Assembly: GCF_018398935.1 (NCBI RefSeq)
Contig: NZ_CP074694.1
Coordinates: 5,700,001 to 5,732,000, forward strand
From: Telmatocola sphagniphila
Lineage (GTDB): Bacteria; Planctomycetota; Planctomycetia; Gemmatales; Gemmataceae
Reading direction: 5' to 3'
DNA length: 32,000 bases
The notes below the pieces were generated by a model. That model was given only the letters and a program-made list of their open reading frames with translations. It had not been told where the DNA came from and did no database searches. A program made the translations under genes and the position numbers. Positions 2,829-29,778 of this stretch are shown here, in pieces; within the stretch, counting starts at the first letter, position 1; each line of letters starts with the position of its first letter.

Positions 2829-3196
2829 GGCTCTGTCGCAGAGTTGGTAACGAGCGTTGGTTAGAATGTCTTCAGGAATTCATTCTGACAGGACGCAGCG
2901 TCATTATTATGCAGGATTTCTTTCCTCAAGAAGACGGTTTGGTCGTCACCGATTTCGCTCTCAATGCGGATCTTTTGGACGTTGCTCTAATAACCACATG
3001 CCCGAGTTCGCAGTGCCCCGACTGGGGCCAGCTGACATATCGGATTCACAGCCATTATCGGCGGGTCTTGGCGGTCTTACGCCGGCAAGCCCGACGGGTA
3101 TTGCTCAGGATCGATTCGCGAAAATTTCGATGCGTGAATGCCGCTTGTCGCAGGCAAATCTTCTGCGGACGTCAGCCCGATGTTTTTGCTGGCTAA
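2829..3196 (+). mobile_element. 5' remnant of an ISL3-family insertion sequence: terminal repeat plus the N-terminal zinc-finger part of the transposase. The DDE part is missing.
   Basis: GGCTCTGTCGCAGAGTTGG at 2829 starts like the GGCTCTTCCG terminal repeats of the two full ISL3 copies. ORF 2909-3196 shows the ISL3 zf pattern (CPSSQCPDWG..YRIHSHYRRVL..RKFRCVNAACRRQIF) with degenerate cysteines. No catalytic part follows. Confidence 0.6.
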
Positions 3197-3710
3197 TGAA
3201 TCATTGCAAACCTTGTTCGACTTCAGAGGAGCCGACGATGCGAAGGATTGGCAGAACGTCAACGATGGAGTGATGAGCGGCGTCTTTGAAGGGAAGTTCA
3301 AGATCACCGACAAGAAGACCATGGAGTTCTTCGGCACGCTCTCCCTGGTTAACAACGGAGACTTCGCCTCGGTGCGAACGAAGGCCAAGAAACTCGGTCT
3401 GGAGAAAGGCGATACCGTGGTCGCCAAAGTCCGGGGCGATGGCCGGGAATACACTCTGAACCTCTACCTCAACAAGCCGCTGATCGCTTTCTAGTATCGT
3501 GCAACGGTCCAGACCAAGAAGGACGAATGGATCGAGGTCAGAGTCCCGCTCGACAAGTTCAAGGCAACTTCGTTTGGCAGGGTTGTGAAAGATGCTGGGC
3601 CGGTAAAGCCAGATGAGATCAACGCCCTGGGGTTCAGGTTGAGCGACAGGAAGGCTGGGCCGTTCAAGCTGGAGATCGAGTCGATCAAGGTTGAGCGGGC
3701 GGGGAAGTAA
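3180..3710 (+). pseudogene. CIA30-family (complex I intermediate-associated protein 30-like) gene interrupted by an in-frame TAG at 3492-3494
   Basis: The frame runs from ATG 3180 (or 3138) through TAG 3492-3494 to TAA 3708-3710, and (3708-3138) is divisible by 3. Both halves fit the CIA30 pattern: DWQNVNDGVMSG..FFGTLSLVNNGDFASVRT..VRGDGREYTLNL, then YRATVQTKKDEWIEVRVPLDKF..INALGFRLSD..GPFKLEIESIKV. Confidence 0.75.
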
Positions 3711-3775
3711 TCTATCGTCCACGCTTACTCCGAACAACGTAAAATATTCAATCTAGTTAAGGAGGTATCCCCTTC

Positions 3776-4378
3776 ATGCGGCTTGACATTAAGCATCTGA
3801 TCTTGGTGATCGTTTCCCTCTCTTTCGCAGCAGTGGCGGCTAACGCCCAAGGCAAGGCAACCCTGGTTGTTGCCGGATTCGACCGGAAAATTGTCGATGA
3901 ACACAAACAGCTTTTCGACATGTCCTGTATTCCCGCCAATGTCGAAATGGTTCTCAAGCTCACCGGACACGAACCTGTCAATTACTTCAAGCTACAAGAT
4001 GCGTGGAGTACCAAGACAGACGGCAACTTCGCTGATTTTGACGGGAAAACGATTGCTGGACTCACATTCCATCACAGGTTCAAAGACAAAAGGGACAAAG
4101 ACTTCCCTCTCAAACGCTTATTCAGCGTGATCGACAAGGAATTGTCCTCCGGGCGTTACGTCATCATCTCCTTGCAGTCAGGTAAGAATGCGTATCACAT
4201 GCACACGATCTACGGTAAAGACGCTGATGGTGATTTTGTGGCGATCACCAAAAGCGGTTCCAAGGCATCAGGAGCAAAAACGGTTGTGGTGCCACATCTG
4301 AAGGAACTCATCACCCAGATGGAAGGGACAGACATCTTGAAGTATGAAGAAAGTGAGCCGGTCAAGCAGAAGAAGTGA
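3776..4378 (+). CDS. Secreted protein, possibly a papain-like (C39-like) cysteine peptidase fold
   Basis: Strong SD AAGGAGG at 3759-3765, 10 nt before ATG 3776. Signal peptide LILVIVSLSFAAVAANA|QG. Candidate nucleophile context DMSCIPANVEMVLKLTG and a later HMHTIYGKDADGDFVAI, matching the Cys...His...Asp order of C39-like peptidases. Confidence 0.75.
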   Translation: MRLDIKHLILVIVSLSFAAVAANAQGKATLVVAGFDRKIVDEHKQLFDMSCIPANVEMVLKLTGHEPVNYFKLQDAWSTKTDGNFADFDGKTIAGLTFHHRFKDKRDKDFPLKRLFSVIDKELSSGRYVIISLQSGKNAYHMHTIYGKDADGDFVAITKSGSKASGAKTVVVPHLKELITQMEGTDILKYEESEPVKQKK

Positions 4379-4969
4379 GGGCGTGATTCCTCGAAAATCT
4401 GCTTGAGCAGTCAACTGATTGCGGCTGCTTTGGGTCCTAGGTACGCCCCAGCGGTCAGCAAGCAATCCGCCGGCATGAAGTCCAGAGAGTGCCTGGAGTA
4501 ACATCCGATCGAGTATAGGCTGGCGTTTTTGAACCGTTCATGGCCTTGCATGGGCATGGAGATCTTTCGACCTTCCCGCTGGCGTCACTGCAAATGATTT
4601 CCAGGCAGGTGTTTCGTTTTTGGCAAATCGGTTTCTCGATTTCTTTCCCAAAGGGAAGTCCCGGAGTCATCACCGAACGGCATGGATGCTGCATTTCTTG
4701 AAGACCTGCAAAAAGTCGGCCTGACTCGTCAGGCTTAGACCAGTCCAGCGGAGCGATTACTGCCCGGCCTTCAGAAAATTGCTCGGAATGTCTTGGAGAG
4801 CTGAAGTGTTTTCCTCCGGAATTCGAGTTGATAAAGCCTGAATGCCGTTACCCATTCGTTACTTTTTGCGACTGCCTGATGTGGTATAACCATGCCATGA
4901 ATGGCATTTATGGTTATGTCTGCGGCACGTCCGCTGCCAACGTTTTCTACATCGTCGAGGAGAACGGAA

Positions 4970-6598: not shown

Positions 6599-6783
6599 AC
6601 TTGACGACCATCCTGCCACTACCGATGATGTGTTTAAGTATCATTTTGGAGATGTCTTTAAGTTTCCTTCGACGGATCGCCTCCGCCTAAAACCTACCGT
6701 ATCCCAGCCGGCTTCGATAAGCGAAGCCAATTCTGCACTGAGGAATTCCTTTGTTACAGGAACCTTCAGGAGATTTCGCTCGC

Positions 6784-9700
6784 ATGAAACTCACCTCCTG
6801 GCTCGAGAGAGCCGCTCGTATCCTCCTGCTGGTCTCCATCGCATTAGTCGTCGTCGGATCCTGGACAGATCTATCCCTACGCCCAGCACATCCCGAGCGA
6901 GAATCACTCATCGCATCCTTCCTTCCTCCCGCAGGTTCCGAACGGACCTATTTGGAACAACTGGCACAAAGCGATCCACAAGCCTTGGAATTCTACCTGC
7001 AGCTGACACCCACCTCCGAGCGGCGGGAAGCTTTAAGTTCCCTGGCCGAAAAAGCCGTTCTAAAGCAACCTTGTATCCGTTATGAACTCTGCAAGAGGAT
7101 CGCCCGGGAATCGGCGACGACGGCCCCCGAGAAGGCTCGATTTCTGATTGCGCAGTCGGCCTATTTGAAAAGCCTCGAACATGATCCTCAACGGCAGAAG
7201 GGATATTTGGACGCTTTGAGCAAAGATCCTCACGCCGTTCGGAACGGTTTTACAGGATGGGATCACGCCGTTCGGGCGGCTCTGGCGGATCCTGATCTGT
7301 GGTCTTATTACCAAGACGAGAAGAGCACTCAAACGAGTCCTTTCTGGCTGGATGAGGTACTACTGACGATCCTTCAGTTGACTCCAGACGGCCAGGAACT
7401 CAAGCATTCTCCGGAGTTGGTGCGAGAGATTGTTGCCGCCGCCCGGAAGTATGATCCGATTGCTCGTCGAATCGTCCGCGACCTTCAGTTAGGAGCAGAG
7501 GGAATGCTCCTGTTAATCCAATACGGACCGCTGATCGAGCAAGCCGTTCGCGAGCAGTTGGATCTTCAGGAAGTGCTCGAAATCCTCTACGCTAACCCGG
7601 GAGAATTCGAAGGGGGGGAATCGTCGGAGTTGGTCCTTCAGATGAAAGAGATCTATTCGAAGAACCCCGCTGTTTGGAATTCCGCCCGTCACTTTCCTTT
7701 ATGCTGGAAACTCCATCGCGAGTTTCCCAAGGAGGCTTCCCAACTGCTCGAGAAATTCGCGGTCGATGATATCGCGAGCTTCCTCTACCTCCACTACCCG
7801 GAGCAAATGCCCGAAGCGATCTCCGCCCTGCGGTCAACAGGAGATGCCGCTTTAGGTACGCTGAGACATTTCGCGGAAGTCCGAAGTGATAATCGGGAGA
7901 TCTTCAAGGACCTTCTGAAAAAGCAGGGATGGCGAGTGATACCCTATTATTTGAAGTACGGCGACTCGGGACTGCAGCGTCTTCGAGAAAACCCTGAAGA
8001 TACCAAGTGGCTGGATAAGGATTTCGATGCGGAGGGCCATATCGTCAATCCGGGCTGGATCGCGGATCTCCCGGTTCTCTCGGGTCCAGTAATGGCTTTT
8101 CGGCACGGAATCGAGGGGACACTCGAATGGGAGGAGGTCGGCTGGGCCGCTTTAGATTTGACAGATGCGGCTGCCTTGGTGGGTACCTCCGGTGTTTCGT
8201 TAATTTGGTCAGTCGCCAAGAATTCCGCCAAGATCGGCTCCAAGAAAGCTCTGAAGCGTGTGTTACCCCGGGAGGCTCGGGAGATCCTGCTTCAAGAAAC
8301 GAAATCTATAACAGCCAAACCAGCGATCAGTCGAGTCGCTAAGCGTCAGGCGTTCCGCGATAAGTCGCTTCCCTCTCTACTTCGGACGGCTTCGCAACCG
8401 ACGGGATCGGGAAAGTACCTACTCTCGCACGGAACGCATCTGATTCTTCCTCAGTTGAGTATGTCGCTGCAGACCGTTCTCAAAAACATTCAGCTAGCCG
8501 TTCAGAAAGTTGAAAAGACAATTCCAAAAATCCGAGATCTTCGGCAGAGCCTTTCCCCTGCGAATTCCCGGGCGTCGGCGCGTTCCGAAAATCTTCCTTC
8601 GGAGGAGTTTCTGCTATATCTGAAGCACCCCGATCAACTAGTGGTGCTCCAAACGCAGCTATTCGATGTCTCCCTCCTGAGTCGTTGGAATTCGCCTTCG
8701 GAGTTTCTGGAGCCAGGCTCTACCGTAAACTTCGGCACAGATATCAGCGCCACGGAATTGGCCGAAGAGATTCTCTCGTTTTGGAGTCCGGCTTCCAGGG
8801 TGTTTCCCGTTCAAGACGTAGAGAACCCAGTCAGAAAAATAGGCTTTTTTCTCGCGCTGGGCTCGCTCACTTTGTTTATCCTAGTCGGAGCAATTCGATA
8901 CCATTTAGTTCGTCCTTGGGCACCGGATCGGATCTTGATCGGTTCGATGATTTTGTGTTTCGTCGTACTCGGTTTGAGCATCCGAGTCTTCTTTAGTGCT
9001 TCCTCGCCTGCCAGTTCGGAGTTGACTCTGGCTCGCCTGAAACAGGATTCCCTCTGCTGGGAGCAGCGATTGGCCGAAGTGTTGGACAGTTCCGACCCGA
9101 CGGTTTTGAGAGAACGAGATCTGTTGGTCGAAACCGTTCTGCAAGATTATCGCCAGCAATTATCGGAAAGCTCCGGTCGGTCCGATCTCCAAAGAAAAGA
9201 ACAGTCGCTCCGGCTTCTCAAACGGTTCTTCCCTATTCTCGCGAGAGCCCAAGTGGAGAATTTGATCGCTGAAGTCCATCGGCTTCGAGAGGAGCAGGAT
9301 TATAAGAAGGTGCAGTCGGAATTCGAAAACGGAATTTCTTCCTTCAAGGAATCGGCCCAGCGATTTCTATCCGAATATCCCCGTTCCGAATCCAAAAAGG
9401 AAGTCCACAAATGGATTAATGAAAAGATCGGTAAAGAGGTTGGGGACCTTCGAGTGAAGATTCAGCAGATCGAGAATAGCAATCTCTCGGGAATCGCGGA
9501 ACGAGCCAAAGAACTGGCGAAACTCTGCGATCAGCTTTCTCGGACGGATCCCGAACGAAATCGCATCCAATCCGCCTTGAAAGTCGCACACCTATTGATG
9601 AGTGAAAAAGAGTTCACCCTGGCTTTGCGTAATTCTGGCGAGTTCCAAGTCGCGGAATTCCACCGGGTCGTGATTACTTGCGGAGACGAAACGGTTCATT

Positions 9701-10005
9701 CTTGCACCAGCCCTTCGCGAGTCCAAATTCAAGATTGGACGGACGAATTCAAGCTGAAGTGGCAGCCGGAAAAATCAATCAAAATCGAGCTTCGCCTCGG
9801 CAGTACCGTAATATTTTCCAGATCCCTTTGTGCCGAGACTGAAGTGAAGGGAGAGTGGTCTATCTTGGACTTGAATGGCAAGAAAGAACTCGAAGTCAGA
9901 TCGGCTCGATTCCTGGGAACTCCCTATGTCACATTGGAGATACTGGATTTCACCTCGGAGGAGGAAAAAGCCTTTAGAACCTATTTCCTCGGCAAGGATT
10001 GGTAA
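6784..10005 (+). CDS. Large (1,073 aa) membrane/coiled-coil protein of unknown function
   Basis: Uninterrupted ORF; ATG 6784 with AGGAG at 6768-6772. N-terminal anchor ILLLVSIALVVVGSW, then a long helical region. Two internal hydrophobic helices (IGFFLALGSLTLFILVGAI / ILIGSMILCFVVLGLSIRVFF), about 200 aa of charged heptad-like sequence, and a C-terminal beta-looking domain. No motif I can name. Confidence 0.8.
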   Translation: MKLTSWLERAARILLLVSIALVVVGSWTDLSLRPAHPERESLIASFLPPAGSERTYLEQLAQSDPQALEFYLQLTPTSERREALSSLAEKAVLKQPCIRYELCKRIARESATTAPEKARFLIAQSAYLKSLEHDPQRQKGYLDALSKDPHAVRNGFTGWDHAVRAALADPDLWSYYQDEKSTQTSPFWLDEVLLTILQLTPDGQELKHSPELVREIVAAARKYDPIARRIVRDLQLGAEGMLLLIQYGPLIEQAVREQLDLQEVLEILYANPGEFEGGESSELVLQMKEIYSKNPAVWNSARHFPLCWKLHREFPKEASQLLEKFAVDDIASFLYLHYPEQMPEAISALRSTGDAALGTLRHFAEVRSDNREIFKDLLKKQGWRVIPYYLKYGDSGLQRLRENPEDTKWLDKDFDAEGHIVNPGWIADLPVLSGPVMAFRHGIEGTLEWEEVGWAALDLTDAAALVGTSGVSLIWSVAKNSAKIGSKKALKRVLPREAREILLQETKSITAKPAISRVAKRQAFRDKSLPSLLRTASQPTGSGKYLLSHGTHLILPQLSMSLQTVLKNIQLAVQKVEKTIPKIRDLRQSLSPANSRASARSENLPSEEFLLYLKHPDQLVVLQTQLFDVSLLSRWNSPSEFLEPGSTVNFGTDISATELAEEILSFWSPASRVFPVQDVENPVRKIGFFLALGSLTLFILVGAIRYHLVRPWAPDRILIGSMILCFVVLGLSIRVFFSASSPASSELTLARLKQDSLCWEQRLAEVLDSSDPTVLRERDLLVETVLQDYRQQLSESSGRSDLQRKEQSLRLLKRFFPILARAQVENLIAEVHRLREEQDYKKVQSEFENGISSFKESAQRFLSEYPRSESKKEVHKWINEKIGKEVGDLRVKIQQIENSNLSGIAERAKELAKLCDQLSRTDPERNRIQSALKVAHLLMSEKEFTLALRNSGEFQVAEFHRVVITCGDETVHSCTSPSRVQIQDWTDEFKLKWQPEKSIKIELRLGSTVIFSRSLCAETEVKGEWSILDLNGKKELEVRSARFLGTPYVTLEILDFTSEEEKAFRTYFLGKDW

Positions 10006-10284
10006 GGATTTTCGGATTACTTTACAGGATCGGAAGTGATCCCTAGCTCGGAGAAGAATGAGTAGCGGGATCGATGATTATTACCAAACCCAGTGGGGCG
10101 AATCAGTTCTGGCTTTCTAGTTGCTCAACGTGTTTTTACCGATTCCTGACGCCCGCGAGTTTCGAATGCTGGCAGCAAGGTTTCTAAAATTGAGCTCCGA
10201 TAGAGGCGAATAGCAGACCGAGGGCTAGGGGATTATTGGCGAAATTCGAGACACCTGCAGCAGGGGCATTTAGGAAAGCGATCT

Positions 10285-11406
10285 ATGAGTTCCATTTACC
10301 GACTTGAAGATTTGTTACCGCGCTGGCAGGAAAGGATGGCTCCACTAGTTGCGGACCAAACGGAGGCTTTGGTCGAAGAAATGCTCCGGCCGATGCCGAC
10401 CTGGATCAACTCCGCTGACCCCGCGCAGCAGTATCAGCTGGAAGATACCCTGCGTCGAAAAGCCGAAGAATTGGCAGTTACCACTCTACTGCCCCAGGGG
10501 CTGGATTGGCTAAACCAGCAAAATTTCGGACCTTCGCCCGCAAAGTCAGAAAGAGTCAAGATCGAACTCCTTTCGGCGATTCGTCAGAGAATTCCCGCTT
10601 GCCAACTGTTCCTTCCCAAGCCGACTCAGGAAATCCCGACGCGATCCTGGGTATACTCGGCCGCCTTGGGGGCCGGAATTGGATGCCTCCTCCTCACGCC
10701 GTTGAGTTTACTGTTACTAGGAGAGCGGGAACCCGGTTTAGCGTTAGGAGGCGTCGTAGGAGCGGGTTCGGCTGTCGGTGCTATCGGTTGGCTCTCGCGG
10801 CAATCGAAATTCCAACGTTACGCGGAATTCATCCTGGCGGCGACGACACTGACTTCCGGGGTAGTAGGACTCTATAGGTTAATCCGCCGGGACTCTTTAG
10901 GATTGCTGAAAACGGCCGGCTGGTTCGGAGCCGGCTGGCTATTAGTAACCTTGGCCCGACCGAGAAAGGTCGGGTTGTCCCATTCGGAAAGCGGGGAGAT
11001 CCTCCAACCGCAGGTTCGAGCCTACTTGAATCATCTTGCCGACCTGGTTTTAAGTTTGTGCTGGTCGCACCCCGACCGAGAGGACAAAATTCTCTCATCC
11101 TCCTCGGAATCGAACGGAATTCCCGAATCGATTGCCGACGCTCTGGGAGTCATTCGCCAAATCTGCGACGATCCCCAATCCGCCGAAAAACATTTATCAG
11201 GTGCCGTCCGGATTTTGATGCAGCGCATTCGCGACCAGGGATACGAATGGCGGACGATTCCTTCCGGTACGCTCTATTCCGACGATCTGAAAAACTTGTT
11301 CGAAGTATTCGGGATGGTCGAGATCGGTCAACCTGTGGAAACTTTGAATCCGGCCTGGGTCCATCGGGGGCAGGTACTTAAAGCGGGTCTCGTACGAAAG
11401 ATCTAA
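10285..11406 (+). CDS. Four-TM membrane protein with a GrpE-like C-terminal domain (putative nucleotide-exchange partner of the downstream Hsp70-like ATPase)
   Basis: Hydrophobic block at aa ~120-225 (about 4 helices). The tail RILMQRIRDQGYEWRTIPSGTLYSDDLKNLFEVFGMVEIGQPVETLNPAWVHRGQVLKAGLVRKI follows the GrpE C-terminal pattern (G.e.i...G..FDp......g.v.....pG....g.vL+.A.V.V). The stop lies 21 nt before the next gene's ATG. Confidence 0.8.
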   Translation: MSSIYRLEDLLPRWQERMAPLVADQTEALVEEMLRPMPTWINSADPAQQYQLEDTLRRKAEELAVTTLLPQGLDWLNQQNFGPSPAKSERVKIELLSAIRQRIPACQLFLPKPTQEIPTRSWVYSAALGAGIGCLLLTPLSLLLLGEREPGLALGGVVGAGSAVGAIGWLSRQSKFQRYAEFILAATTLTSGVVGLYRLIRRDSLGLLKTAGWFGAGWLLVTLARPRKVGLSHSESGEILQPQVRAYLNHLADLVLSLCWSHPDREDKILSSSSESNGIPESIADALGVIRQICDDPQSAEKHLSGAVRILMQRIRDQGYEWRTIPSGTLYSDDLKNLFEVFGMVEIGQPVETLNPAWVHRGQVLKAGLVRKI

Positions 11407-11427
11407 TCGATTCCTGGGAGAATAGAT

Positions 11428-13554
11428 ATGGCGTCTTCACTTCCCAACGGCATGAAAGAACTGCCACTTTTGGGATACATAGGAATCGATTTTGGAACCA
11501 GCACTACCCATATTGCAGTCTGTTATCTCGACGGCAATACGGTTCCGCAGGCAGTTCCTCTGGCCGGTAAATCCTCGATTCTTACCTGTCTGTTATTGAG
11601 AGAAGCCAACTCCAACGGCGAGGCTGTCGTCGCCTATGGGGAAAAGGCTCTGAGGACTTGGTTCACTCTGAGTGATTCAGAACGAAAGAATCATCGTTTC
11701 GCAGTCGGTTTCAAACCCGATATTATTAGTGGCTCGCGGGCGGGAATTGCTCAAAGCGACTCCAGAGCGTTTTTGACCAAATGCTTTCAGGCCGTTCGAG
11801 AGAGTGGCGTAGTTCGAGCTCTGGGCCGAGAAGAAGGAATGCCGGTCGTGATTGGCGTTCCGGCCGAAATCAGCGAACTGCAAAAGCGTACGACGGCCGA
11901 GCTGGCGGAACAGGCCGGGTTCGGAAAGGTGAACTCTTTAGAAGAACCGCTCGGGGCCTTAGCCTATCATCTGGCGGATGGCTCGGTATCGGGAGCGGAA
12001 GCCCGTACCGGGGTCTTGGTGATCGATTTTGGTGGCGGGACTCTGGATATCGCTTGGCTGAACTCCTCAAAAGGAATGGCAGCTCCTTGGGGAGATCCCC
12101 TTCTGGGAGGCCGGTTATTCGATGACATCTTTTATCAGTGGCTTCTTCAACAGAATCCGCAGATCGAATTATCCGATGCCGATCAATTCTTCGTTTGGCA
12201 AGCGACTTGTCGCGAACTCAAGGAAAAGTTCAGTACCCACTGGCAGGACGAATTGGATAGCTCCCAAAAGCCCGCTCTTGAGGCGATTGAATACCAAGAT
12301 CTTTTGGCCCTTCCCGGACGCCGGTTCGCAGAGTTTCGAGGAAGTGTACCAGAGTTCTTGAATCGAACTCAGCGATACCGGCCTAGCTCTGTCGCCCAAG
12401 AGTATTTTTCGAAAGTTGATTCCCGGTTGCGGGATTTAGGAAAAGAGAAGCCGGTCGATCTCCTGGATTGGATTCGAAGAGAACTCACGCGCGGGTTCAA
12501 CCAGAATCAACATCCCCTGGCGTTGATTATCTTGACCGGCGGGAGCTGTAAGTGGCCGTTCATGCGAGACTTGGCCGTCGACGCCTTCGGCCTCAAGCGG
12601 GAGTGTGTCCGACGGTCTCCCGATCCGGAAACAACGATCGGTTCGGGATTGGCAGTTTACAACGTATTGAAGCATCGGAATGCCCTGAAACGGCAAAAGT
12701 TACACGAAGAGTTCCCGACGTATAAAGAAAAATTCCAGAGGAGGGTCGAGGAGAAAATCGACGAGTTTACCCGGCAAACCGCTATGGCTGTCGTGCTCCC
12801 TTTGATGAAGCAGGTCGAATCTCTCTTTCTCAAGTGGTATAGCGAAGGGGGGGCCCTGAAATCGGTACAGGAAAACATCCAGACATTTGTTGAAAACTAC
12901 GATGTCAAAAACACATTACAAGCCCGCGACAAACTGCTTGCTGAAGACTTGATGCGATTGATTCGAGATTACCTGGGGATCTGGCTCAAGGAGCATTCGA
13001 TCCACCGCAAAGTCGAGGATTTGCTTCCTCCCGGAACGCTCACGGTTCCTGTTCCAGAATTAGGGAGTTTTACCAATGAGATCACCAAAATCATTTCTAA
13101 TCTCGTCGTAATCGGACTGACCGGAACCATTTTTGGAATCGTGTATTTGGCCGCCCATGGCACGCATATTCTGGCGCATCCCTTGACCGGATTGCCGATC
13201 GCACTCGCTTCGGCACTCGCGGCTGGCCTCGGTTTCCAGCGAATCGAGGAACCACTCCGCCGCAAAGTCCTCGAGTTTGAGTGGGGTCAAAACTCTTTGA
13301 AGGCTCTCAAGCTCGCACTTTCTGAGAATCGATTGAAAGAGAAAATCGCCGAAAGTCAGCAAAAAGCGATTCAGGAGATCCAGGATCTCTTGAAGGGAGC
13401 AGGTCCTCGCGATCAAGCTCCGACTGCGGCAAGACCATCTTCCTCCTGGAACAACCTACAAGAACTTCGGGCCCGCGTGACCGGGCAGTTTGAAGATATT
13501 GTCAACAAGGTGATCGAAGATCTGGGAGTACTCGAAGAGATTCGACGAGATTAG
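11428..13554 (+). CDS. Hsp70/actin-fold ATPase (DnaK-like NBD) without a canonical substrate-binding domain, with a C-terminal TM hairpin and coiled-coil tail
   Basis: GGGAG at 11416-11420, 7 nt before the ATG. NBD motifs in canonical order: IGIDFGTSTTHIAV, VIGVPAEISELQKRTTAELAEQAGF, VLVIDFGGGTLDIAWL, IILTGGSCKWPFM, TTIGSGLAVY. These are followed by helical sequence and two hydrophobic helices (IISNLVVIGLTGTIFGIVYLAA, LTGLPIALASALAAGLGF). Confidence 0.9.
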   Translation: MASSLPNGMKELPLLGYIGIDFGTSTTHIAVCYLDGNTVPQAVPLAGKSSILTCLLLREANSNGEAVVAYGEKALRTWFTLSDSERKNHRFAVGFKPDIISGSRAGIAQSDSRAFLTKCFQAVRESGVVRALGREEGMPVVIGVPAEISELQKRTTAELAEQAGFGKVNSLEEPLGALAYHLADGSVSGAEARTGVLVIDFGGGTLDIAWLNSSKGMAAPWGDPLLGGRLFDDIFYQWLLQQNPQIELSDADQFFVWQATCRELKEKFSTHWQDELDSSQKPALEAIEYQDLLALPGRRFAEFRGSVPEFLNRTQRYRPSSVAQEYFSKVDSRLRDLGKEKPVDLLDWIRRELTRGFNQNQHPLALIILTGGSCKWPFMRDLAVDAFGLKRECVRRSPDPETTIGSGLAVYNVLKHRNALKRQKLHEEFPTYKEKFQRRVEEKIDEFTRQTAMAVVLPLMKQVESLFLKWYSEGGALKSVQENIQTFVENYDVKNTLQARDKLLAEDLMRLIRDYLGIWLKEHSIHRKVEDLLPPGTLTVPVPELGSFTNEITKIISNLVVIGLTGTIFGIVYLAAHGTHILAHPLTGLPIALASALAAGLGFQRIEEPLRRKVLEFEWGQNSLKALKLALSENRLKEKIAESQQKAIQEIQDLLKGAGPRDQAPTAARPSSSWNNLQELRARVTGQFEDIVNKVIEDLGVLEEIRRD

Positions 13555-13912: not shown

Positions 13913-14746
13913 TCATTTCCGCTTACCGCGGAAACAGTTGACGCGTCGAAACATGTGCATGCCTTGAAGCGCATCTAAATAGAAAGCCAAAGCCCTAGGG
14001 TTGTCCATCGTTAAAAGGCTCTGCTTATAACTGAATATGTTTGCCACAAACGATTGCAACTCAGAATCTTTTCGACTCATCAGCTGCAAAAAGTTTTCGT
14101 GCTCCAGATCGCGACGCACCCATCGAGGCGATTCGACCATTGTATCCTTGACGAGTATTACGCCCGAACGATGCACCGCGACAGAATCCTTGGAGAAACT
14201 CTCCGAAGTCAGCACCGCGCCGCCGGCAGCATAAGCATCGAACTCAGAATACAAAGTCATTTTGTCGCGGTGCACGTGTCCGTCGATAAAGTCAACAAAT
14301 TCACGAGCCAACTGTCCGGACCAGATGATGGGATTACTAGGCACATACGAAGGAATCGACACACCAACTCGGTAACCCAGCAAAACCATTTGCCGGTTTT
14401 GACGATCAGAAAGTAGTTTCTGACAGGTCCGGTAAACGGGAGCTACAACTCGTCTCGCGTAACAAAACGGACAGAACGACGCAAAGTTACAAACACGCAA
14501 AGGAGCCATCAAACAGCTAGCACCAACCGGAGGACAATTCACAGCGAAATTGTAACGAGACTCGCTAGAAAAACGAGAGAGCAACTGCGTGTCGCGAAGC
14601 CGGCGAAGTTGCTTTCGATACTTCCCCTGGATAGCGGACGTATCTTTAGCTACGCCCGCGATCGATGTCATCATCATACGTATTAAAGGGGAAAATTTTC
14701 GCGACGTAAACCGAAAAGTTAACGTTGGGAAATCAGAATCAGCCAT
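13913..14746 (-). CDS. Hypothetical protein; candidate rolling-circle-type replication initiator (weak, motif-level only)
   Basis: ATG 14746 with GAGG 7 nt upstream (longer ORF runs to 14794). CNFASFCPFCYARR resembles the C..CPxCxWRR zinc motif of pC194/pUB110-type Rep proteins. A hydrophobic strand (MVLLGYRVGV) lies about 25 aa later, where motif FLTLT sits in those Reps. A candidate Tyr motif is FSYKQS. The HUH motif is not convincing (GHVHRDK). Confidence 0.65.
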   Translation of the reverse strand: MADSDFPTLTFRFTSRKFSPLIRMMMTSIAGVAKDTSAIQGKYRKQLRRLRDTQLLSRFSSESRYNFAVNCPPVGASCLMAPLRVCNFASFCPFCYARRVVAPVYRTCQKLLSDRQNRQMVLLGYRVGVSIPSYVPSNPIIWSGQLAREFVDFIDGHVHRDKMTLYSEFDAYAAGGAVLTSESFSKDSVAVHRSGVILVKDTMVESPRWVRRDLEHENFLQLMSRKDSELQSFVANIFSYKQSLLTMDNPRALAFYLDALQGMHMFRRVNCFRGKRK

Positions 14747-14890
14747 GTTAAGACCTCGAAGAGTATAGAAGAAATATTTTTTATAGCTTGCCACTATTTA
14801 TTATTTTTGTTTTACTAAGCACCGCAATAAACCACAAAAAATTGGCCGTTCCAGATGCTAAGTAAACCAAGTTCTGAGTTTGAGGTTAGT

Positions 14891-14926
14891 TTCTTCTCTT
14901 TCTCTTTCTCTATAGAAAGAGAAGAA
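14891..14926. repeat. 13-bp perfect inverted repeat (TTCTTCTCTTTCT / AGAAAGAGAAGAA) with a 10-nt spacer, polypyrimidine/polypurine
   Basis: Arms at 14891-14903 and 14914-14926, read directly. It lies in the region upstream of the Rep-like gene. Confidence 0.9.
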
Positions 14927-14970
14927 ATGCCGCCGCCCTTGCGGGCGTCGTGGGCGAAAGGCATTTTTAT

Positions 14971-15054
14971 TTCCAAAAACCAAAACCAAACGAAACGAAC
15001 TTGCGACAAAAGCGCAGACCGAGTTCCGACAAAGCGCAGAAGCGAGTTCCGACA
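14971..15054. promoter_or_regulatory. Origin-like or regulatory tract: phased A-tracts followed by about 2.2 tandem copies of a 23-bp unit
   Basis: CCAAAAACCAAAACCAAACGAAACGAAC (14972-15000), then CGACAAAAGCGCAGACCGAGTTC (15004-15026), CGACAAAGCGCAGAAGCGAGTTC (15027-15049) and CGACA (15050-15054). Confidence 0.6.
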
Positions 15055-15071
15055 GTGTGAGTGGCGCGCGT

Positions 15072-15091
15072 TTGTATTAACGATAATACGC
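15072..15091. repeat. Palindrome family copy C (17/20: TTGTATTAACGATAATACGC), nested in a longer imperfect GC-rich palindrome
   Basis: Read directly. Flanked by GTGAGTGGCGCGCG / CGCGCTCAC arms. It ends 2 nt before the stop codon of the alpha-CTD-like gene (15094-15096). Confidence 0.8.
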
Positions 15092-15093
15092 GC

Positions 15094-15366
15094 TCACGCT
15101 CGTCGACGAAGTTTGCGGCGCCAGTTTGCCGGATAGTCGACACCGTGTCGCGACAGAGTTTGTTTGAGTTCTCGAAAAGCGCTATCGCCGAAGTTCGGTA
15201 TGGTTCCGAAGAAACTCGGTTTCTGTTGCAGCAGCTGGTCGACGTAAAGGATATGGTGCTTCTCGAGCGCGTTGGCGATGCGTACCGGCAGGTCCAGTTC
15301 TGCGATAGCGCGGTCCTGCGGTTTGACTTCGATGATCGGCGGACGTCTTCGTCTTGCTTTCGACAT
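15094..15366 (-). CDS. Stand-alone RNA polymerase alpha-subunit C-terminal-domain (alpha-CTD)-like DNA-binding protein (90 aa)
   Basis: IAELDLPVRIANALEKHHILYVDQLLQQKPSFFGTIPNFGDSAFRELKQTLSRHGV aligns position by position with E. coli RpoA CTD [56 protein letters not shown]. Confidence 0.8.
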   Translation of the reverse strand: MSKARRRRPPIIEVKPQDRAIAELDLPVRIANALEKHHILYVDQLLQQKPSFFGTIPNFGDSAFRELKQTLSRHGVDYPANWRRKLRRRA

Positions 15367-15368
15367 TT

Positions 15369-15569
15369 TTAATCCTGTCCGATGATGTGTTTTTCAACTA
15401 TCCTCTCACACTTTCTCAGCTTTTTTATCTTTTCCAAATCTACCCAAGTTGCGCTAGAGTTTTTCTCTTTTACAATTTGCGGACAACTTTTGCCTTTAGC
15501 GTCTAGGTCGAGAAGAGTTTTGATCGCTGAGTCTACTGCGAGTTCTGAGAATCCGTAGACCTTTTTCAT
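15369..15569 (-). CDS. Small hypothetical protein (66 aa from ATG 15569), translationally coupled to the alpha-CTD-like gene
   Basis: Its TAA (15369-15371) lies 2 nt from the ATG (15364-15366) of the downstream gene. No recognisable motif. Confidence 0.45.
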   Translation of the reverse strand: MKKVYGFSELAVDSAIKTLLDLDAKGKSCPQIVKEKNSSATWVDLEKIKKLRKCERIVEKHIIGQD

Positions 15570-17300
15570 TGCGATTCGAAGCAGCACAAGTTTTGCCGGA
15601 TTTTCTTTTTTGTCGAGTGCCCTTGCTGGTGTTCCAACTGTATTAGCTCCCCGCAGGATAAAACTCCGACTCTGTCGCTCAGTCCCGAGTTGTTCGAGTG
15701 CGGATTTAGATTACGCGGATCGTACGGCTCGATGATGATATCTCTGCCGATCTGCGGGGCGTTTCAGAACCTGCGAATACAGCCATAGTTGTACTTTCGT
15801 TATAATGTTAATAAAGACGTACAAGCTCTTCAACACCTTAGGCGAGTAGAAGGGTCGGATAAGGGGCTCCGAAACGATTCTGGTTGATTTTTTGGCTATT
15901 AGCGTTGATTTAGAAAGCGATCAGCCGTCCGATTGTACGACAAACAGTTAATTATTTAGATGAAGGTTTAAATATGTATCTGAAAGAAGTGTTGACAGAT
16001 CGTTTCCAGCGTTTTTTGTTCCTGGTTATTTTCCCGCCGCAGCTTCTGAGGAAGAGCAGCCCATCCAGGTTGCTTTCGTGTACGCTGGTGCAGAGCTTTT
16101 TGGCAGCGAGAATCCAGGTATCTTGCAATCGTCGAATCGCATCTCGGCCGAGTCCTTGTCGCACATCGGAATCTTTGACGACCAAGCGTCGAATGCGAAC
16201 GGCAGCTTCTACCTACTTGTATATCACCACGCCTCTAATAGTGCTTCCTACTTTCAACAATCGAACTAAATGATTTCGACTTTTTGTCCGCTGTGCCGTC
16301 AGGACTTTGGCGCACCATCGCTCTCCGGGAAAAGCGTCTTACAAACTACGTGCGGTTGCTTCCGCTTCGGCTTGCTCGATCCAGATAAAACTCAAATCGT
16401 CCGTTGTTATCCTTTGTGGGGCCTGAGTAGGATTTTCGAGGAGTTTTTCTAAATCGAACTCCTCCATAGCAATCCGAGCTAACTTGGATAATTTATCCGC
16501 CATCTGATTCCATACGAGCAACTCTCGTCTATCCTAGTTCCAATTCAGAATTAATTCGTTTCTGTAATATACGTCGAACAGATTCCAGATCGCCGCGTTT
16601 TTCATTCCGCCGCGATCTCGATCATTGCCGCTATCGGCGACGTTCGCACTATCCGTGAATATCTGAACTTGCAAGAGGCGGCGTACGCCAGTCTCTTCTC
16701 GTTCTCTGTCGAGACTAGCGATCAGACCTGCGGGATGGCCGGGTGCTGGAGTTGGCCGGTGATGCGGGCCTCGTTGGCGAACCGGCGGCGGCACCGAGAT
16801 TACTCTCATTCACGAGAGCTTCGAGAATATCGAAAGTCAAAAGGGCCATTGCCACGGCTGGACGGGATCGTTGCAACAGTAGGCTGCTTTGCTGGAAAAA
16901 GAATGGTCGAAACGATCGAAATAAGTCTAACGACGGCCTGATTGGGTCCTCCGGGAGTTATCTAACTCCTGGCGGACGGACGATGATCCGCAGTCTGCTC
17001 TCACGCCTTCACAACGCATCCGCTAACTTCGCTAAAGAGCTTTCAATGCGATAATATTTTTGAATTTTGCATTTTTTTGAGATTGCTTCCTTTCCAGTCG
17101 ATCATTACACTTTGAGACTCTCTCCAAACCATTAAGGCGAGCAAGTTCTGGTTCTCGCCAGCCATGGTTATTCCCGTTCCTTTTAATCGAAGATAGAACT
17201 GATAAGCGACCTTCCCTGATCGGCGATTCGGACGATAGGGATGGGAGCCCAATGCCCTGTTTTCAACCAAAGAAATCGAGTATCGAATAAAGGCGTATCC

Positions 17301-18743
17301 ATGCCAATTGCGTTTCGCTGCGAATCCTGTCAAGTCAAGTTGAAGGCGCCCGATGGGTCGTCGGGCCGGTCTATCGCCTGTCCCGGTTGTAAAACGCGGG
17401 TGACCATTCCTACACCCCCTTCGGAAGATGAAGTAGCCGCCGCATTACTGTTGGATTCGCCCATTTCTGAGGATACTCCCTCCGCCCCCGAAGTGAACAC
17501 TTCCGAACCGGATTGTTATGATTCGGATCCCTTGTCCAAGACCGAGCGGAAGAATACCCTTCTCAAGCAGTTCGAGGATCCGCCCCAGGCGAAAATTCCG
17601 GTCGGAGGCCAACTTCACGCCCCGCCTTCGAAGCCAAAAGTCTCCCCAGTGAAATCGAACGATCCGCCGGGCTGGTTTCGCCACTTGCACTGGTTGCTGA
17701 TCGCCGCGCTGATACCTTTGGCATTTTCGCTACTGCGTAAGCCATCGGAGGCGGACGAACCGATTCCCCGACTTCTAAGAACACTTGAAAATTCCAACCC
17801 TGAAGTAGAACATCGCATCACTGCGGCACTCGAAAGCAGCAATGATCCAGAGGCCGCTTTTGAACGGATTTTCGAAATATTACCCCAGCACAAATTCGAT
17901 GGGGCCTTCCTGCCTCGTAACAGCAAACTTCACTGGCTTTTCGCGGGTCTCTCCGCCACTGTCTTTTTGATATTCATTTACTCTCTGTCTCTATTCGGCA
18001 CTGCCGACCCCAAGCGATTACTTTGGATCGGGCTCTTTACCGGCACAGTTGGCGTGCTGATGTTATTTTTGTTTCAGTACATCGCCGATGCGACCTATGG
18101 GGTGACTCTGATCGGCCGTAGCGTGCTGATCATTTTCTTTTACATCGTCAAATTCATTGGGTTCTCTTATCGTGCGGCCACCGACCCGGATAACGGCTTT
18201 CTGCTCAGCTTCGTCGGCTTTACTCTTGGAGTCGGCTTTTGCGAAGAGGTGTGCAAGGCCGTTCCGCTCTTGTTTAAACATTCCCAGCAGGAAAGCCAAA
18301 GCTGGCGAAATGCGTTCCTCTGGGGGATGGCCTCGAGCGCGGGATTCGGCATCTCGGAGGCCGTGGTTTACGCGGGTGGGCAATACAACGGCATTTCCAG
18401 TTCAGGCATCTATTTGGTCCGCTTTATATCCTGCGTCGCGTTGCATGCACTTTGGACTGGTTCCGCAGCCATTACGATTCAACAGAAACCGGACTGGGTG
18501 AATACCGATGGCTGGTTCGAGTACGGGGCGAGTCTCTTCCGAATACTGGCGATACCGATCGTGTTGCATGGCCTCTACGACACGTTCCTGAAGAAAGACA
18601 TGAATGCGCTGGCTTTACTGACGGCCTTAGCCAGCTTCGGTTATCTGGCCTTCCAGTTGAGCCGCTTGCAGGGAGAGGATGACCGTAACCGAACCGATGC
18701 CATGCTTCGCGATTATCAGCGCAAGAAAAAGGCAATGGCATAG
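17301..18743 (+). CDS. PrsW-family intramembrane protease with an N-terminal zinc ribbon
   Basis: N-terminus CESCQVKLKAPDGSSGRSIACPGCKTRV (CxxC..CxxC), then an acidic/proline linker and multiple TM helices. PrsW signature residues: FCEEVCKAVPLL (EExxK), ALHALWTG, VLHGLYDTF. ATG 17301 is preferred over the ORF-track start at 17241. Confidence 0.85.
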   Translation: MPIAFRCESCQVKLKAPDGSSGRSIACPGCKTRVTIPTPPSEDEVAAALLLDSPISEDTPSAPEVNTSEPDCYDSDPLSKTERKNTLLKQFEDPPQAKIPVGGQLHAPPSKPKVSPVKSNDPPGWFRHLHWLLIAALIPLAFSLLRKPSEADEPIPRLLRTLENSNPEVEHRITAALESSNDPEAAFERIFEILPQHKFDGAFLPRNSKLHWLFAGLSATVFLIFIYSLSLFGTADPKRLLWIGLFTGTVGVLMLFLFQYIADATYGVTLIGRSVLIIFFYIVKFIGFSYRAATDPDNGFLLSFVGFTLGVGFCEEVCKAVPLLFKHSQQESQSWRNAFLWGMASSAGFGISEAVVYAGGQYNGISSSGIYLVRFISCVALHALWTGSAAITIQQKPDWVNTDGWFEYGASLFRILAIPIVLHGLYDTFLKKDMNALALLTALASFGYLAFQLSRLQGEDDRNRTDAMLRDYQRKKKAMA

Positions 18744-28039: not shown

Positions 28040-29463
28040 GGCTCTTCCGTTTCTAGGTGTAGCATTCAGAGAAATACTTCTGGATCTGGTTGACGAAGCC
28101 GCGAATCTCCGCAATGGTCGGCCCTAATTTTTTCGCTGCCCAATTCACGTCCAGGAGTATTCTCGTCCAGAGCGTAGTTAGACTCTGAATTCCATAACTC
28201 CGACGTAGCACTACCCGAATCTTGGTATTGAGTCCTTCCACCGGGCCGCTGCTTTTGCGTTCCTCGAAGTAGGCTAAGATCCCCTCCCAATTGTTCTTGA
28301 GCATCGTGATGAACGGCTCCCAATCCATCTCGGTCTCGCGGGCCTGGACGATCCAATCTTCCAACAGTCGCGAGGCTTCGGCTCGGTTCGGGGCACTATC
28401 GAAGATTTTGGTCGCCTCCCAACGCAGATGGTAGATCGTTCCCAACGAAGGCACCTTCTCGAACAAATCCTCGAGGGCCTGGACCTGCTCCGGATTCAAA
28501 TCCTCGGGACGACGCCGGAAGTCGTGCATCTGAGAACGCAGCTTCTTGCGGGCTTCCCCGCTCAAACTTCGCTTGTAGGCTCGATAGTTTTTTTTCGCAG
28601 ATCGTCTGCCACCTCCCCCAATTTCTTGGCGACGTGAAAGCGATCTATCACCGACTGGCTGTTGGGTAAATGCACGCCGCAAGCCTTCAAATACGCCGGG
28701 CTCATGTCCGTATGATGCCAACGCACCCCCGCACGTTGCTGGGCCGACAAACGCTCCAAACACGCTCGCCCCGCTGCTTCGTCGCGACCCTTGGACAGAG
28801 CCAGAATCTCCGGACGCTCCCCATTCGTCAGGTCCGTCAATATTGTCGCATATCCCTTATGCCCCTTACGCAGGCTGATCTCATCCAGACCCAAACGCTC
28901 GATCTTCCGCTGGGGATCGATCTGCTTCGCCTTGGCGTCCTCTATCCGGTTCTTGACGATTCGCTCCACCGTCTCCGCGGCGATCCCCAAACGCACTGCC
29001 ACGTCTTCGGCTGTGCTCCCGATCAGACTGACCAGCACCTGCTCCTCGAAGCGGAACGTATATTTCACATCCCGACGCTTGAAGGGCGGCAACAGCGATT
29101 GACGGTGACCGCACGACGGACAGCGGTGATACACCTCCTGGTACACGAAAAAGCTCGGCTTACCCCACAAATCCAGATCGCGGATGCTCAGAAACTTGTT
29201 CTTCTCCACCAATTGAAGCCGAGACTCTCGCTGGCATGTCTCGCAACAAAGATTGTCGGGCAACTCCCAACTCACGTGAAAGGCGTGGCCCCCGTCGATG
29301 CGTTCGTATTCGCCAACGCTCACTCCGGCAGGAACGTCCATGTCTATGGCAATGGTAGTCGTCGTCATCGGCTCTTCCGTGAACCAGGAAAAGGGTACTC
29401 TCAATTGCAATCTATCCCAAAATGACCGATTCGCCGAGAGTTGCGCCTAAAAACGGAAGAACC
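28040..29463 (-). mobile_element. ISL3-family insertion sequence, copy 2 (1,424 bp)
   Basis: Same termini as copy 1, with one mismatch in IRL (GGTTCTTCCG). 8-bp direct repeat ATAATGCA at 28032-28039 and 29464-29471. Confidence 0.9.
28053..29368 (-). CDS. ISL3-family transposase (438 aa if a -1 shift occurs at the A8 run; otherwise two overlapping ORFs)
   Basis: Family patterns present: zinc fingers (CCETC, CPSCGH), LGLDEISLRKGHKGYATILTDL, HHTDMSPAYLKA, IDRFHVAKKLGEVADDLRKK. The frames overlap at CGAAAAAAAACT (run at 28588-28595 on the plus strand). A -1 slip gives ..DLRKKNYRAYKRSLSGEARKKL... Confidence 0.8.
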
Positions 29464-29778
29464 ATAATGCAGGCGTGCATTTGGTGTGTTTATATCCTCT
29501 ATATACAGTCCAAATTGATCCAAAATATATGATGCACGCCTACTTGCTAAACCTAGAGGATCAGTCTCATTTAACGGTGAATTAAGCTCAAATGAGTAGT
29601 AATTGTTATTTTGCAAAATCAATCCAATTGGATCATTTTGCATCCAACGCTCCAAAGTTGGGCTATACATTCGATTTCTAAAATCGTAGAGACTAGTAGC
29701 TTCAAGCTCTCCGCCCTGGTGCAAAAACTTCCAATTATAAGCACTGCTGCTTATCGATCCCCAGGAGGAGTTCAAATA

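Follow-up and report, generated by a model that had tools for sequence, protein, structure and literature searches.

The DNA analysed here, called the window below, is a stretch of 32,000 nucleotides (nt) from Telmatocola sphagniphila (Planctomycetota, Gemmataceae), positions 5,700,001 to 5,732,000 of contig NZ_CP074694.1, which is 6.59 Mb long. Our subject is a pair of adjacent genes on its forward strand, the second of which encodes an Hsp70-like protein of 708 amino acids (aa). We have high confidence in the architecture and pairing of these genes as a conserved two-gene module (10285-11406 and 11428-13554), and we consider it probable that they encode a self-contained, membrane-embedded Hsp70-type ATPase together with its own nucleotide-exchange factor. 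All positions given without a further label are those of the window.

Two adjacent genes and an Hsp70-type ATPase domain

The features of the module, with the evidence for each, are as follows.

10285..11406, + strand: partner gene, 373 aa, with an N-terminal helical region, two to four hydrophobic helices and a C-terminal GrpE-like domain (open reading frame list)
10657..10794, + strand: hydrophobic, glycine-rich hairpin of the partner, aa 125-170, GAGIGCLLLTPLSLLLLGE / LALGGVVGAGSAVGAIGWL (Kyte-Doolittle 2.13 and 1.66)
11125..11400, + strand: GrpE-like module of the partner, aa 281-372, two helices and a small beta domain (model, Foldseek, hhalign)
11416..11421, + strand: GGGAGA, a Shine-Dalgarno-like motif 6 nt ahead of the Hsp70-like ATG (sequence reading)
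11428..13554, + strand: Hsp70-like gene, 708 aa (open reading frame list; more than 270 full-length homologues of ~700 aa)
11473..12633, + strand: Hsp70-type nucleotide-binding domain (NBD), aa 16-402, with intact catalytic motifs (model confidence, Foldseek, PDB profile, hhalign)
12634..13062, + strand: helical stalk, aa 403-545, in which the NBD is directly followed by a 71-residue helix and then by return helices (DSSP, model confidence)
13087..13236, + strand: hydrophobic hairpin, aa 554-603, with predicted membrane insertion (hydrophobicity, Hessa scale, family conservation)
13237..13548, + strand: post-hairpin helices, aa 604-656 and 677-707, with a variable disordered insert at aa 657-676 (model, conserved motifs)

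Within the NBD, five nucleotide-binding signatures can be recognized.

aa 18-28: phosphate-1, IGIDFGTSTTH
includes E173: connect-1, EEPLGALAYHL
aa 196-207: phosphate-2, VLVIDFGGGTLD
aa 369-378: adenosine, LTGGSCKWPF
aa 403-411: connect-2, TIGSGLAVY

The Hsp70-like open reading frame (ORF) starts with the ATG at 11428 and its stop codon ends at 13554, and the product is 100% identical to the NCBI entry "Hsp70 family protein [Telmatocola sphagniphila]". The partner's stop codon lies 21 bp ahead of it. Homologues of the 708-aa protein number more than 270, nearly all of them 670-750 aa long and aligning from end to end, and are found in Gemmataceae, Isosphaeraceae, Acetobacteraceae (Rhodopila, Rhodovastum) and Gammaproteobacteria. 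More distant members of ~630-740 aa were found in Calditrichia, Chromatiaceae (Lamprocystis, Thiodictyon), Thermotogaceae and Desulfovibrionaceae by a scan of one genome per species.

An initial reading, made from the sequence alone, had claimed five NBD signatures in canonical order, and these were borne out: they span ~415 aa and are invariant or nearly so in 35 homologues. The residues E173, D200, T205 and D207 align with E171, D194, T199 and D201 of Escherichia coli DnaK (hhalign, probability 97%; the DnaK sequence used here and in the Hessa-scale comparison below was entered by hand), and the Hsp70-typical motif GDxxLGGxxFD is present. Pfam HSP70 (PF00012) scored 41.1 bits (cut-off 20.6) on the 708-aa protein against 36.3 bits for MreB; both matches fall on the central segment, and that to HSP70 spans only aa 139-272. 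NCBIfam gave partial matches to HscA and DnaK. In each of ten further homologues HSP70 was above threshold and scored higher than MreB. A family profile of 35 members matched 131 sequences in the PDB, and the best 60 of these 131 are all Hsp70 proteins (DnaK, Hsc70, BiP, Ssb; E ~1e-18).

The AlphaFold model of the 708-aa protein, built on the 35-member alignment, has a predicted local distance difference test score (pLDDT) of 87.3, mostly above 90 in the NBD, and a predicted template-modelling score (pTM) of 0.81. It includes a full IIB lobe, and its best 50 Foldseek matches in the PDB are all Hsp70 entries, with E-values from 2e-14, template-modelling scores (target) of up to 0.73 on DnaK NBD chains, and ~18-21% identity to DnaK across the NBD in the structural alignments. 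The NBD is Hsp70-type, not of the MreB, ParM or FtsA type, and on this the Pfam scores and the Foldseek search of the model agree. Because the signatures are invariant, the catalytic residues align with those of DnaK and both the profile and fold searches give Hsp70, we expect the 708-aa protein to be an active ATPase.

The lower-scoring Pfam matches, to MreB and to ParM_N (E 0.012), might suggest an actin-like protein that is anchored in the membrane and polymerises there into filaments, in the manner of MreB, FtsA or ParM, instead of cycling like an Hsp70; FtsA and MreB themselves bind membranes via hydrophobic or amphipathic elements. We regard this as very improbable. The ranking of HSP70 above MreB held in the 708-aa protein and in all ten homologues, and MreB, ParM, FtsA and MamK are absent from the best 60 PDB profile matches and the best 50 fold matches, appearing only as secondary, lower-scoring matches. 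The GDxxLGGxxFD motif is Hsp70-specific, as is a GrpE-like partner of the kind described below, and the IIB lobe is complete.

The helical stalk and its hydrophobic hairpin

Past residue 403 the model is entirely helical, and DSSP assigns no strand after residue 396 except a two-residue bridge. The last helix of the NBD (TIGSGLAVYNVLKHRN...) continues into the 71-residue helix, residues 403-473, which is followed by helices at 477-490 and 493-522, and the stalk as a whole is modelled at pLDDT 90-96. Four residues of the stalk, W470, G474, G475 and L477 (WYxxGGxL), are invariant. The helix-like region that had been proposed between the NBD and the hairpin is thus present in the model, and the long helix would give it the geometry of a stalk. 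The proposed loss of the substrate-binding domain (SBD) also held up: neither a beta-sandwich SBD nor a helical lid is present in the 708-aa model (pLDDT 87), and no conserved hydrophobic interdomain linker of the DVLLLDV type was seen in the sequence or the model. A profile of the C-terminal domain found no relative in the PDB or Pfam, where its matches were noise or sub-threshold. Given that there is no beta structure, no linker and no relative in these databases, the C-terminal region is not a divergent SBD.

Two adjacent hydrophobic helices, claimed from the outset, follow the return helices at aa 555-576 (nt 13090-13155) and aa 586-603 (nt 13183-13236). In the 708-aa protein they are moderately hydrophobic, with 19-residue Kyte-Doolittle maxima of 1.96 and 1.61 and a lowest 19-residue Hessa-scale energy of +1.5 kcal/mol, also moderate. 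The family median of this lowest energy is +0.33 kcal/mol, with the minimum always at aa 509-600; the value for E. coli DnaK is +6.4. A hydrophobic stretch of 20-60 aa at ~aa 535-610 occurs in 119 of 120 homologues, conserved in position and not in sequence, and all 37 family loci fetched in the genome scan encode it. Some 45 other Hsp70-like ORFs from the same scan lack a hairpin, the exceptions being one pair of diverged paralogues and a protein in which a single hydrophobic segment occurs C-terminally. On this evidence the hairpin is predicted to insert in the cytoplasmic membrane. The model places the hydrophobic pair at aa 545-600 with low confidence (pLDDT 48-64), as expected for a segment that has no protein contacts in a monomer model.

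The sequence-only reading had put this membrane hairpin at the C-terminus, followed by a charged tail. The hairpin itself stands, but it lies inside the helical domain and not at the end of the protein, and in place of the tail there are helices at aa 604-656 and 677-707, modelled mostly at pLDDT 73-94, with family-conserved SExxLxxKL and C-terminal VIxDLGVLExxR motifs and a nearly invariant L702. Since these helices are confidently modelled and carry conserved motifs, the hairpin looks like an insertion within the helical stalk, rather than a terminal anchor with a loose tail.

The family defined by this C-terminal domain is rare, as its profile had only 265 matches (clusters at 50% identity) among 1.84 billion representative proteins. 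In the full-length matches, of 570-750 aa, the domain makes up the last ~250-300 residues and starts at ~aa 330-440, and among these representatives it is found only in the architecture of NBD plus stalk and hairpin. Six short matches were inspected. Three begin at a conserved internal methionine (WPFM motif) and one begins mid-motif with no methionine, and we therefore read these four as gene fragments; the other two begin elsewhere. A match of 1262 aa was rejected as an artefact of a low-complexity repeat.

Two Pfam families matched the C-terminal region of a few members below threshold. The first, fvmX5 (FtsH ternary system domain X5), matched 3 of 15 members below its curated cut-off (best E 0.0015). 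The second, a bacterial dynamin-like helical domain, matched one homologue across the hairpin region (E 0.003-0.016; 14.8 bits against a cut-off of 28.3). Sub-threshold matches of this kind were located in homologues P0019 (aa 603-677) and P0071 (aa 521-614).

The predicted membrane partner and its GrpE-like domain

Of the 37 family loci, 33 have a homologue of the 373-aa partner, detected with a partner hidden Markov model, directly 5' of the ATPase gene and in the same orientation, an arrangement first seen in three loci. At least two of the four loci in which it was not detected end too early upstream. The positive loci come from Planctomycetota, Alpha- and Gammaproteobacteria, Thermotogota, Calditrichota and Desulfovibrionaceae, the gap between the two genes is 2-71 bp or a 4-nt overlap in loci other than the window, and divergence of the partner follows that of the ATPase. 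Clustering of all neighbouring ORFs of the family loci yielded no third gene conserved across clades.

The partner has no sequence match in Pfam, NCBIfam, PADLOC or the PDB. Its structural model rests on nine sequences because two word-indexed searches gave only 8 proteins each, probably as low-complexity membrane words crowded the candidates. The model has an N-terminal helical region, helices at 119-145, 149-172, 174-199 and 206-223, a further helix at 233-260, and then the C-terminal domain. The first two of these helices carry the glycine-rich hairpin (Hessa-scale minimum +0.35 at aa 127), in which G129, G133, G151, G155 and G159 are invariant across 18 sequences, and two weaker hydrophobic helices follow at aa 174-223. 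Glycine-zipper-like hairpins are carried by both the partner and the ATPase.

The conserved tail of the partner, GYEW...G.PY...FD.FG.I..GQPVETL.PA..R.G.V..G.LRR, reads like the end of GrpE, which was noticed before modelling. In the model this part consists of two helices (281-295 and 301-317) followed by six strands (320-372). With this structure, the sole Foldseek matches at probabilities of 0.75-0.99 were eight GrpE chains and one integrative model of E. coli GrpE, the chains being from E. coli, Thermus and human mitochondria; they include 1dkg_B (0.99), 1dkg_A (0.97), 9blt_B (0.96), 3a6m_A (0.95), 9bls_C (0.91) and 9a81_A (0.91), aligned over ~100 columns.

A second test was made with hhalign, in which 33 partner C-termini were compared to a four-sequence GrpE alignment (E. 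coli and Bacillus subtilis GrpE, entered by hand, and two GrpE-like ORFs from the fetched loci). The P-values were 4.5e-4 to 5.8e-4, at a probability of only 29%, and the register, which places query columns 53-143 (partner aa 281-371) on E. coli GrpE 93-191, agrees with the earlier by-eye alignment. On the GrpE side the aligned part takes in the helix pair that belongs to the four-helix bundle, together with the beta domain. In the controls, 30 column shuffles had a minimum P-value of 0.049, and a reversed alignment gave 0.68. The long N-terminal dimer helix of GrpE is not seen in the partner model, which has an unrelated helical N-terminus and membrane helices instead. We think it quite likely, from the model and its context, that the C-terminal domain is GrpE-like, in the sense of a fold-level resemblance backed by context and not of membership in the Pfam family; that the modelled domain would act as an exchange factor is a proposal in which we have moderate confidence.

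We also considered the partner as a J-domain protein, as its motif W-x-HPD-R (aa 260-265, with HPD at aa 262-264; the region runs from aa 254-259, window 11044-11061) follows a helix as it does in J-domains. This candidate was rejected, because there was no profile similarity: hhalign to a J-domain alignment gave a P-value of 0.033 over 11 unrelated columns. The motif is confined to the clade of Planctomycetes and Acetobacteraceae and is missing from the partners of Thermotogota, Calditrichota, Chromatiaceae and Desulfovibrionaceae. A J-protein may be encoded elsewhere in the genome.

An ATPase with intact Hsp70 catalytic residues and a GrpE-like factor could also be a conventional chaperone tethered to the membrane, with the helical C-terminal domain as a new client-binding module for the folding, assembly or quality control of specific membrane proteins, a role comparable to that proposed for HscC with the membrane-anchored co-chaperones DjlB and DjlC. 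The invariant W470, G474, G475 and L477 could form its binding site, the recruitment of bacterial Hsp70s to the membrane by tail-anchored co-chaperones is documented (PMC8215388), and the syntenic, housekeeping-like context of the module in two clades (below) fits a cellular role. This explanation overlaps with the membrane-embedded Hsp70 engine that we favour and differs from it in the output alone. It is nevertheless unlikely in our judgement, as the module lacks a beta-sandwich, a hydrophobic linker between domains and a J-domain partner, and the C-terminal domain is unlike any known peptide-binding fold.

Genomic context and proposed mechanism

Two further gene pairs were seen in the fetched loci. 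Rhodovastum atsumiense has a second, strongly diverged two-gene copy (L002, 507-3372, - strand) ~3.5 kb from the first. Its first product has 295 aa and ends in a GrpE-like tail, RPAILHGGRCLKRGLA; the second, of 657 aa, is an NBD protein that contains a glycine-rich hairpin, GGSGKALLIAGPIGWVIGFLGAAILFFIG, and a SEERL (SExxL) motif. Neither has a Pfam match. The existence of this pair indicates that the superfamily is wider than the profile shows. A metagenome-assembled genome of Cyanophyceae (L074, 5297-7602, + strand) has another non-canonical pair, in which a 223-aa ORF that weakly resembles E. coli GrpE (BLAST E 0.004) and also has a weak helix-turn-helix match lies directly 5' of a 525-aa Hsp70-like protein. 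The latter lacks a C-terminal hydrophobic hairpin and has one hydrophobic stretch inside the NBD, aa 330-351.

The neighbours of the module in the window include the following.

480-2480, + strand: Ser/Thr protein kinase (Pkinase, E 1e-44)
6751-10005, + strand: 1084-aa ORF directly upstream of the module, with an N-terminal hydrophobic helix and its own hydrophobic hairpin at aa 694-753
13913-14794, - strand: 293-aa ORF with a cysteine-rich CxxFCPFCYARR motif and no family match
15094-15366, - strand: 90-aa ORF, by eye like the helix-hairpin-helix domain of the RNA polymerase alpha C-terminus
17241-18743, + strand: PrsW-family intramembrane protease (E 1.5e-13)
28053-30650: genes for transposases of the ISL3 and IS4/5 families; ORFs on the two strands overlap at ~28.0-29.4 kb

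The 1084-aa ORF, which has no Pfam, NCBIfam, PADLOC or PHROG match, was rejected as a third component, having no homologue in any of 84 fetched loci. A link to the Ser/Thr kinase was likewise dropped: the window and loci L001 and L004 each have a kinase close to the module but the other Planctomycete loci do not, so that the proximity is probably due to chance in kinase-rich genomes. Heat-shock regulation found no support, with no CIRCE element in the window and no notable inverted repeat in the intergenic region between the 1084-aa ORF and the partner (10006-10284); the one inverted repeat found lies inside the 3' end of the 1084-aa ORF. Scans for sigma-70 promoters and terminators were at background level. 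Downstream of the module, 13913-17000 has few long ORFs and a lower G+C content (0.46-0.47). The transposase genes suggest insertion-sequence activity ~15 kb from the module.

Outside the window, a gene for TGT (queuine tRNA-ribosyltransferase) lies upstream of the module in nine Desulfovibrionaceae species (L024, L026, L029, L031-L033 and related loci, ~3500-4800), and an alpha-amylase-family gene does so in four Thermotogaceae (L019, L022, L023 and L027, ~3150-4880). Because the module keeps the same neighbour within each of these clades, vertical inheritance is indicated in both. No theme shared among the neighbours was seen in the other loci.

This context bears on the possibility that the pair is an anti-phage or conflict module, in which the ATPase would be a sensor or switch, and infected cells would be killed or arrested by a pore made of the glycine-rich hairpins of one or both proteins. 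In its favour, the family is rare, with a patchy spread over distant phyla, the window also contains transposases, glycine-zipper-like hairpins occur in the ATPase and the partner alike, and Hsp70 NBDs are known in some conflict systems (PMC7159879, PMC11090510, PMC12642450). Similarity searches gave a few hints in the same direction, namely very weak Foldseek matches of the partner to the alpha-pore-forming toxins AhlB, ClyA and Tc (probability at most 0.15), sub-threshold Pfam PycTM and SLATT_3 matches in a few partner homologues (E 0.25-0.4), and the three sub-threshold matches to fvmX5, a conflict-system domain, described above.

However, no PADLOC model (PADLOC-DB 2.0) matches, the best for the ATPase being PDC-M61B at E 0.0054 over 50 residues, with none for the partner, and a search of 72,556 plasmids and 50,697 phage records turned up no full-length family member. 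The constant TGT and amylase neighbours look like vertical inheritance and not like a defence island, the neighbours in other loci have no common theme, and an exchange factor of its own makes better sense for a motor that cycles than for a trigger that fires once. We therefore hold a conflict role to be doubtful, a little more so than the tethered chaperone. The GTPase/tubulin/Hsp70 systems (Kaur et al. 2020), CoCoNuT CnuD and EACC1-DnaK fusions were compared and set aside, as their partners and architectures differ.

For the membrane-embedded Hsp70 engine that we favour, we infer as follows how the two proteins would sit in the membrane and interact, how nucleotide exchange would be brought about, what the stalk would transmit and what the output would be. 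The 708-aa protein would bind and hydrolyse ATP in its catalytically intact Hsp70 NBD, the last helix of which would run into the long helical stalk that replaces the interdomain linker, beta-sandwich and lid. The stalk hairpin would enter the cytoplasmic membrane, and the chain would return through the conserved helices. The partner would be held in the same membrane by its own glycine-rich hairpin; the even number of membrane helices would leave both of its ends in the cytoplasm, with the GrpE-like domain on the side of the NBD. There the helix pair and beta domain would be presented to the NBD, such that the cleft opens, ADP is released and the ATPase cycles. A dedicated exchange factor implies repeated cycling, and because the long helix replacing the linker is the only route for movements of the NBD lobes, we propose an ATP-driven machine in which lobe opening and closing would be transmitted via the stalk to the hairpin. 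The output would then be mechanical work on the membrane or its proteins, and not the binding and release of unfolded peptides.

The sequence-only reading had described an NBD-only DnaK relative working at or in the membrane. The Hsp70 NBD with no SBD and the conserved hairpin stand; the hairpin belongs inside the stalk, and the adjacent gene for a GrpE-like partner had gone unnoticed. As this conserved partner is a predicted membrane protein with a GrpE-like domain, the idea of a DnaK relative at the membrane is strengthened.

Several observations weigh against the membrane-embedded pair of ATPase and exchange factor. The second hairpin helix is only marginally hydrophobic in the 708-aa protein. 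The Foldseek E-values of the partner to GrpE are only 0.045-0.66, from a model on nine sequences with a pLDDT of 75.8 and a pTM of 0.47; no Pfam GrpE (PF01025) match was obtained at E<=10 for 18 partners, nor any GrpE match in the PDB with the partner profile. The module includes no J-domain protein or other ATPase-stimulating partner. Our confidence in any specific cellular role is low.

One such role, which we put forward tentatively and think rather unlikely, is that the pair is a machine for membrane remodelling or for pulling on membrane proteins, in which ATP-driven movements of the NBD lobes, reset by the GrpE-like factor, would act as a lever on the stalk and on a hairpin wedged into the bilayer. 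A similar layout is seen in bacterial dynamin-like proteins and mitofusins, with a nucleotide-driven globular domain, a long helical bundle and a hydrophobic hairpin within the bundle. The engine here is an actin-fold Hsp70 ATPase and not a GTPase, unlike in the bacterial dynamin-like proteins, and the stalk has no significant similarity to theirs in sequence or fold; the similarity is limited to design and does not indicate homology. If such a machine is real, it would be convergent with dynamin-like proteins and mitofusins, built on an actin-fold ATPase with no substrate-binding domain or J-protein, and would add a third use of the Hsp70 cycle to peptide clamping (as in Hsp70) and nucleotide exchange (as in Hsp110). 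Internal membranes are a noted feature of several hosts, namely the Gemmataceae and, among purple phototrophs, Rhodopila, Rhodovastum, Lamprocystis and Thiodictyon; the Thermotogaceae and gut Desulfovibrionaceae do not fit this pattern.

Comparison with known systems shows which parts of the module are familiar. With DnaK and GrpE it shares the NBD fold and catalytic residues, a helix pair and beta domain resembling the part of GrpE that opens the DnaK cleft, and the adjacency of the genes, which is also that of grpE and dnaK in many bacteria. It differs in having no linker, beta-sandwich, lid or DnaJ-type partner and in the predicted membrane hairpins of both proteins; the partner, for its part, is without the long N-terminal dimerising helix and fails the Pfam GrpE model. 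The human protein HSPA13/STCH is a microsome-associated truncated Hsp70 with no peptide-binding domain and with an N-terminal hydrophobic leader, and it is not known to have a helical stalk, hairpin or dedicated membrane GrpE. The mtHsp70-Tim44-Mge1 import motor is another Hsp70 engine at a membrane, and Mge1 is a GrpE homologue. In bacteria, HscC is described as acting with the tail-anchored DjlB and DjlC at the membrane, where an Hsp70 engine is similarly held together with co-chaperones (Mayer 2021, PMC8215388). In both the HscC and the mtHsp70 systems the Hsp70 is soluble, keeps its SBD and is recruited by a membrane partner, whereas here the ATPase itself is predicted to be membrane-inserted and lacks an SBD.

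Complex bacteria have many DnaK-derived NBD proteins with added domains, the function of which is unexplained (2026 review, PMC13580251). The 708-aa protein resembles these "DnaK derivates", such as YegD and the Myxococcus paralogues, in its DnaK-like NBD and lost SBD, and they too often have added C-terminal domains (PMC13580251). YegD, in contrast, is an NBD alone, whereas the present family has a defined stalk and hairpin and, in 33 of 37 loci, a GrpE-like membrane partner. The text of that review mentions no transmembrane or membrane-anchored derivative, and in full-text literature searches we found no description of the 708-aa family or of the membrane GrpE-like partner. What can be recognised is the engine and the exchange factor; for the architecture, for the predicted embedding of the two proteins in the membrane and for the missing client-binding domain and J-protein, those searches gave no description.

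The module is thus a concrete and testable case among the unexplained "DnaK derivates" (PMC13580251), and its partner would be a case of the GrpE fold in an integral membrane protein, one that sequence models now in use fail to recognise. Hsp70s are understood as ATPase-driven peptide clamps tuned by J-proteins and exchange factors. The 708-aa family appears to keep the ATPase and the exchange factor, to drop the clamp and apparently the J-protein, and to place both remaining parts in the membrane. If the module does work in this way, the nucleotide cycle of Hsp70 is able to drive an output of quite another kind, and the pair would offer a minimal two-protein system for studying how the movements of the NBD are transmitted.

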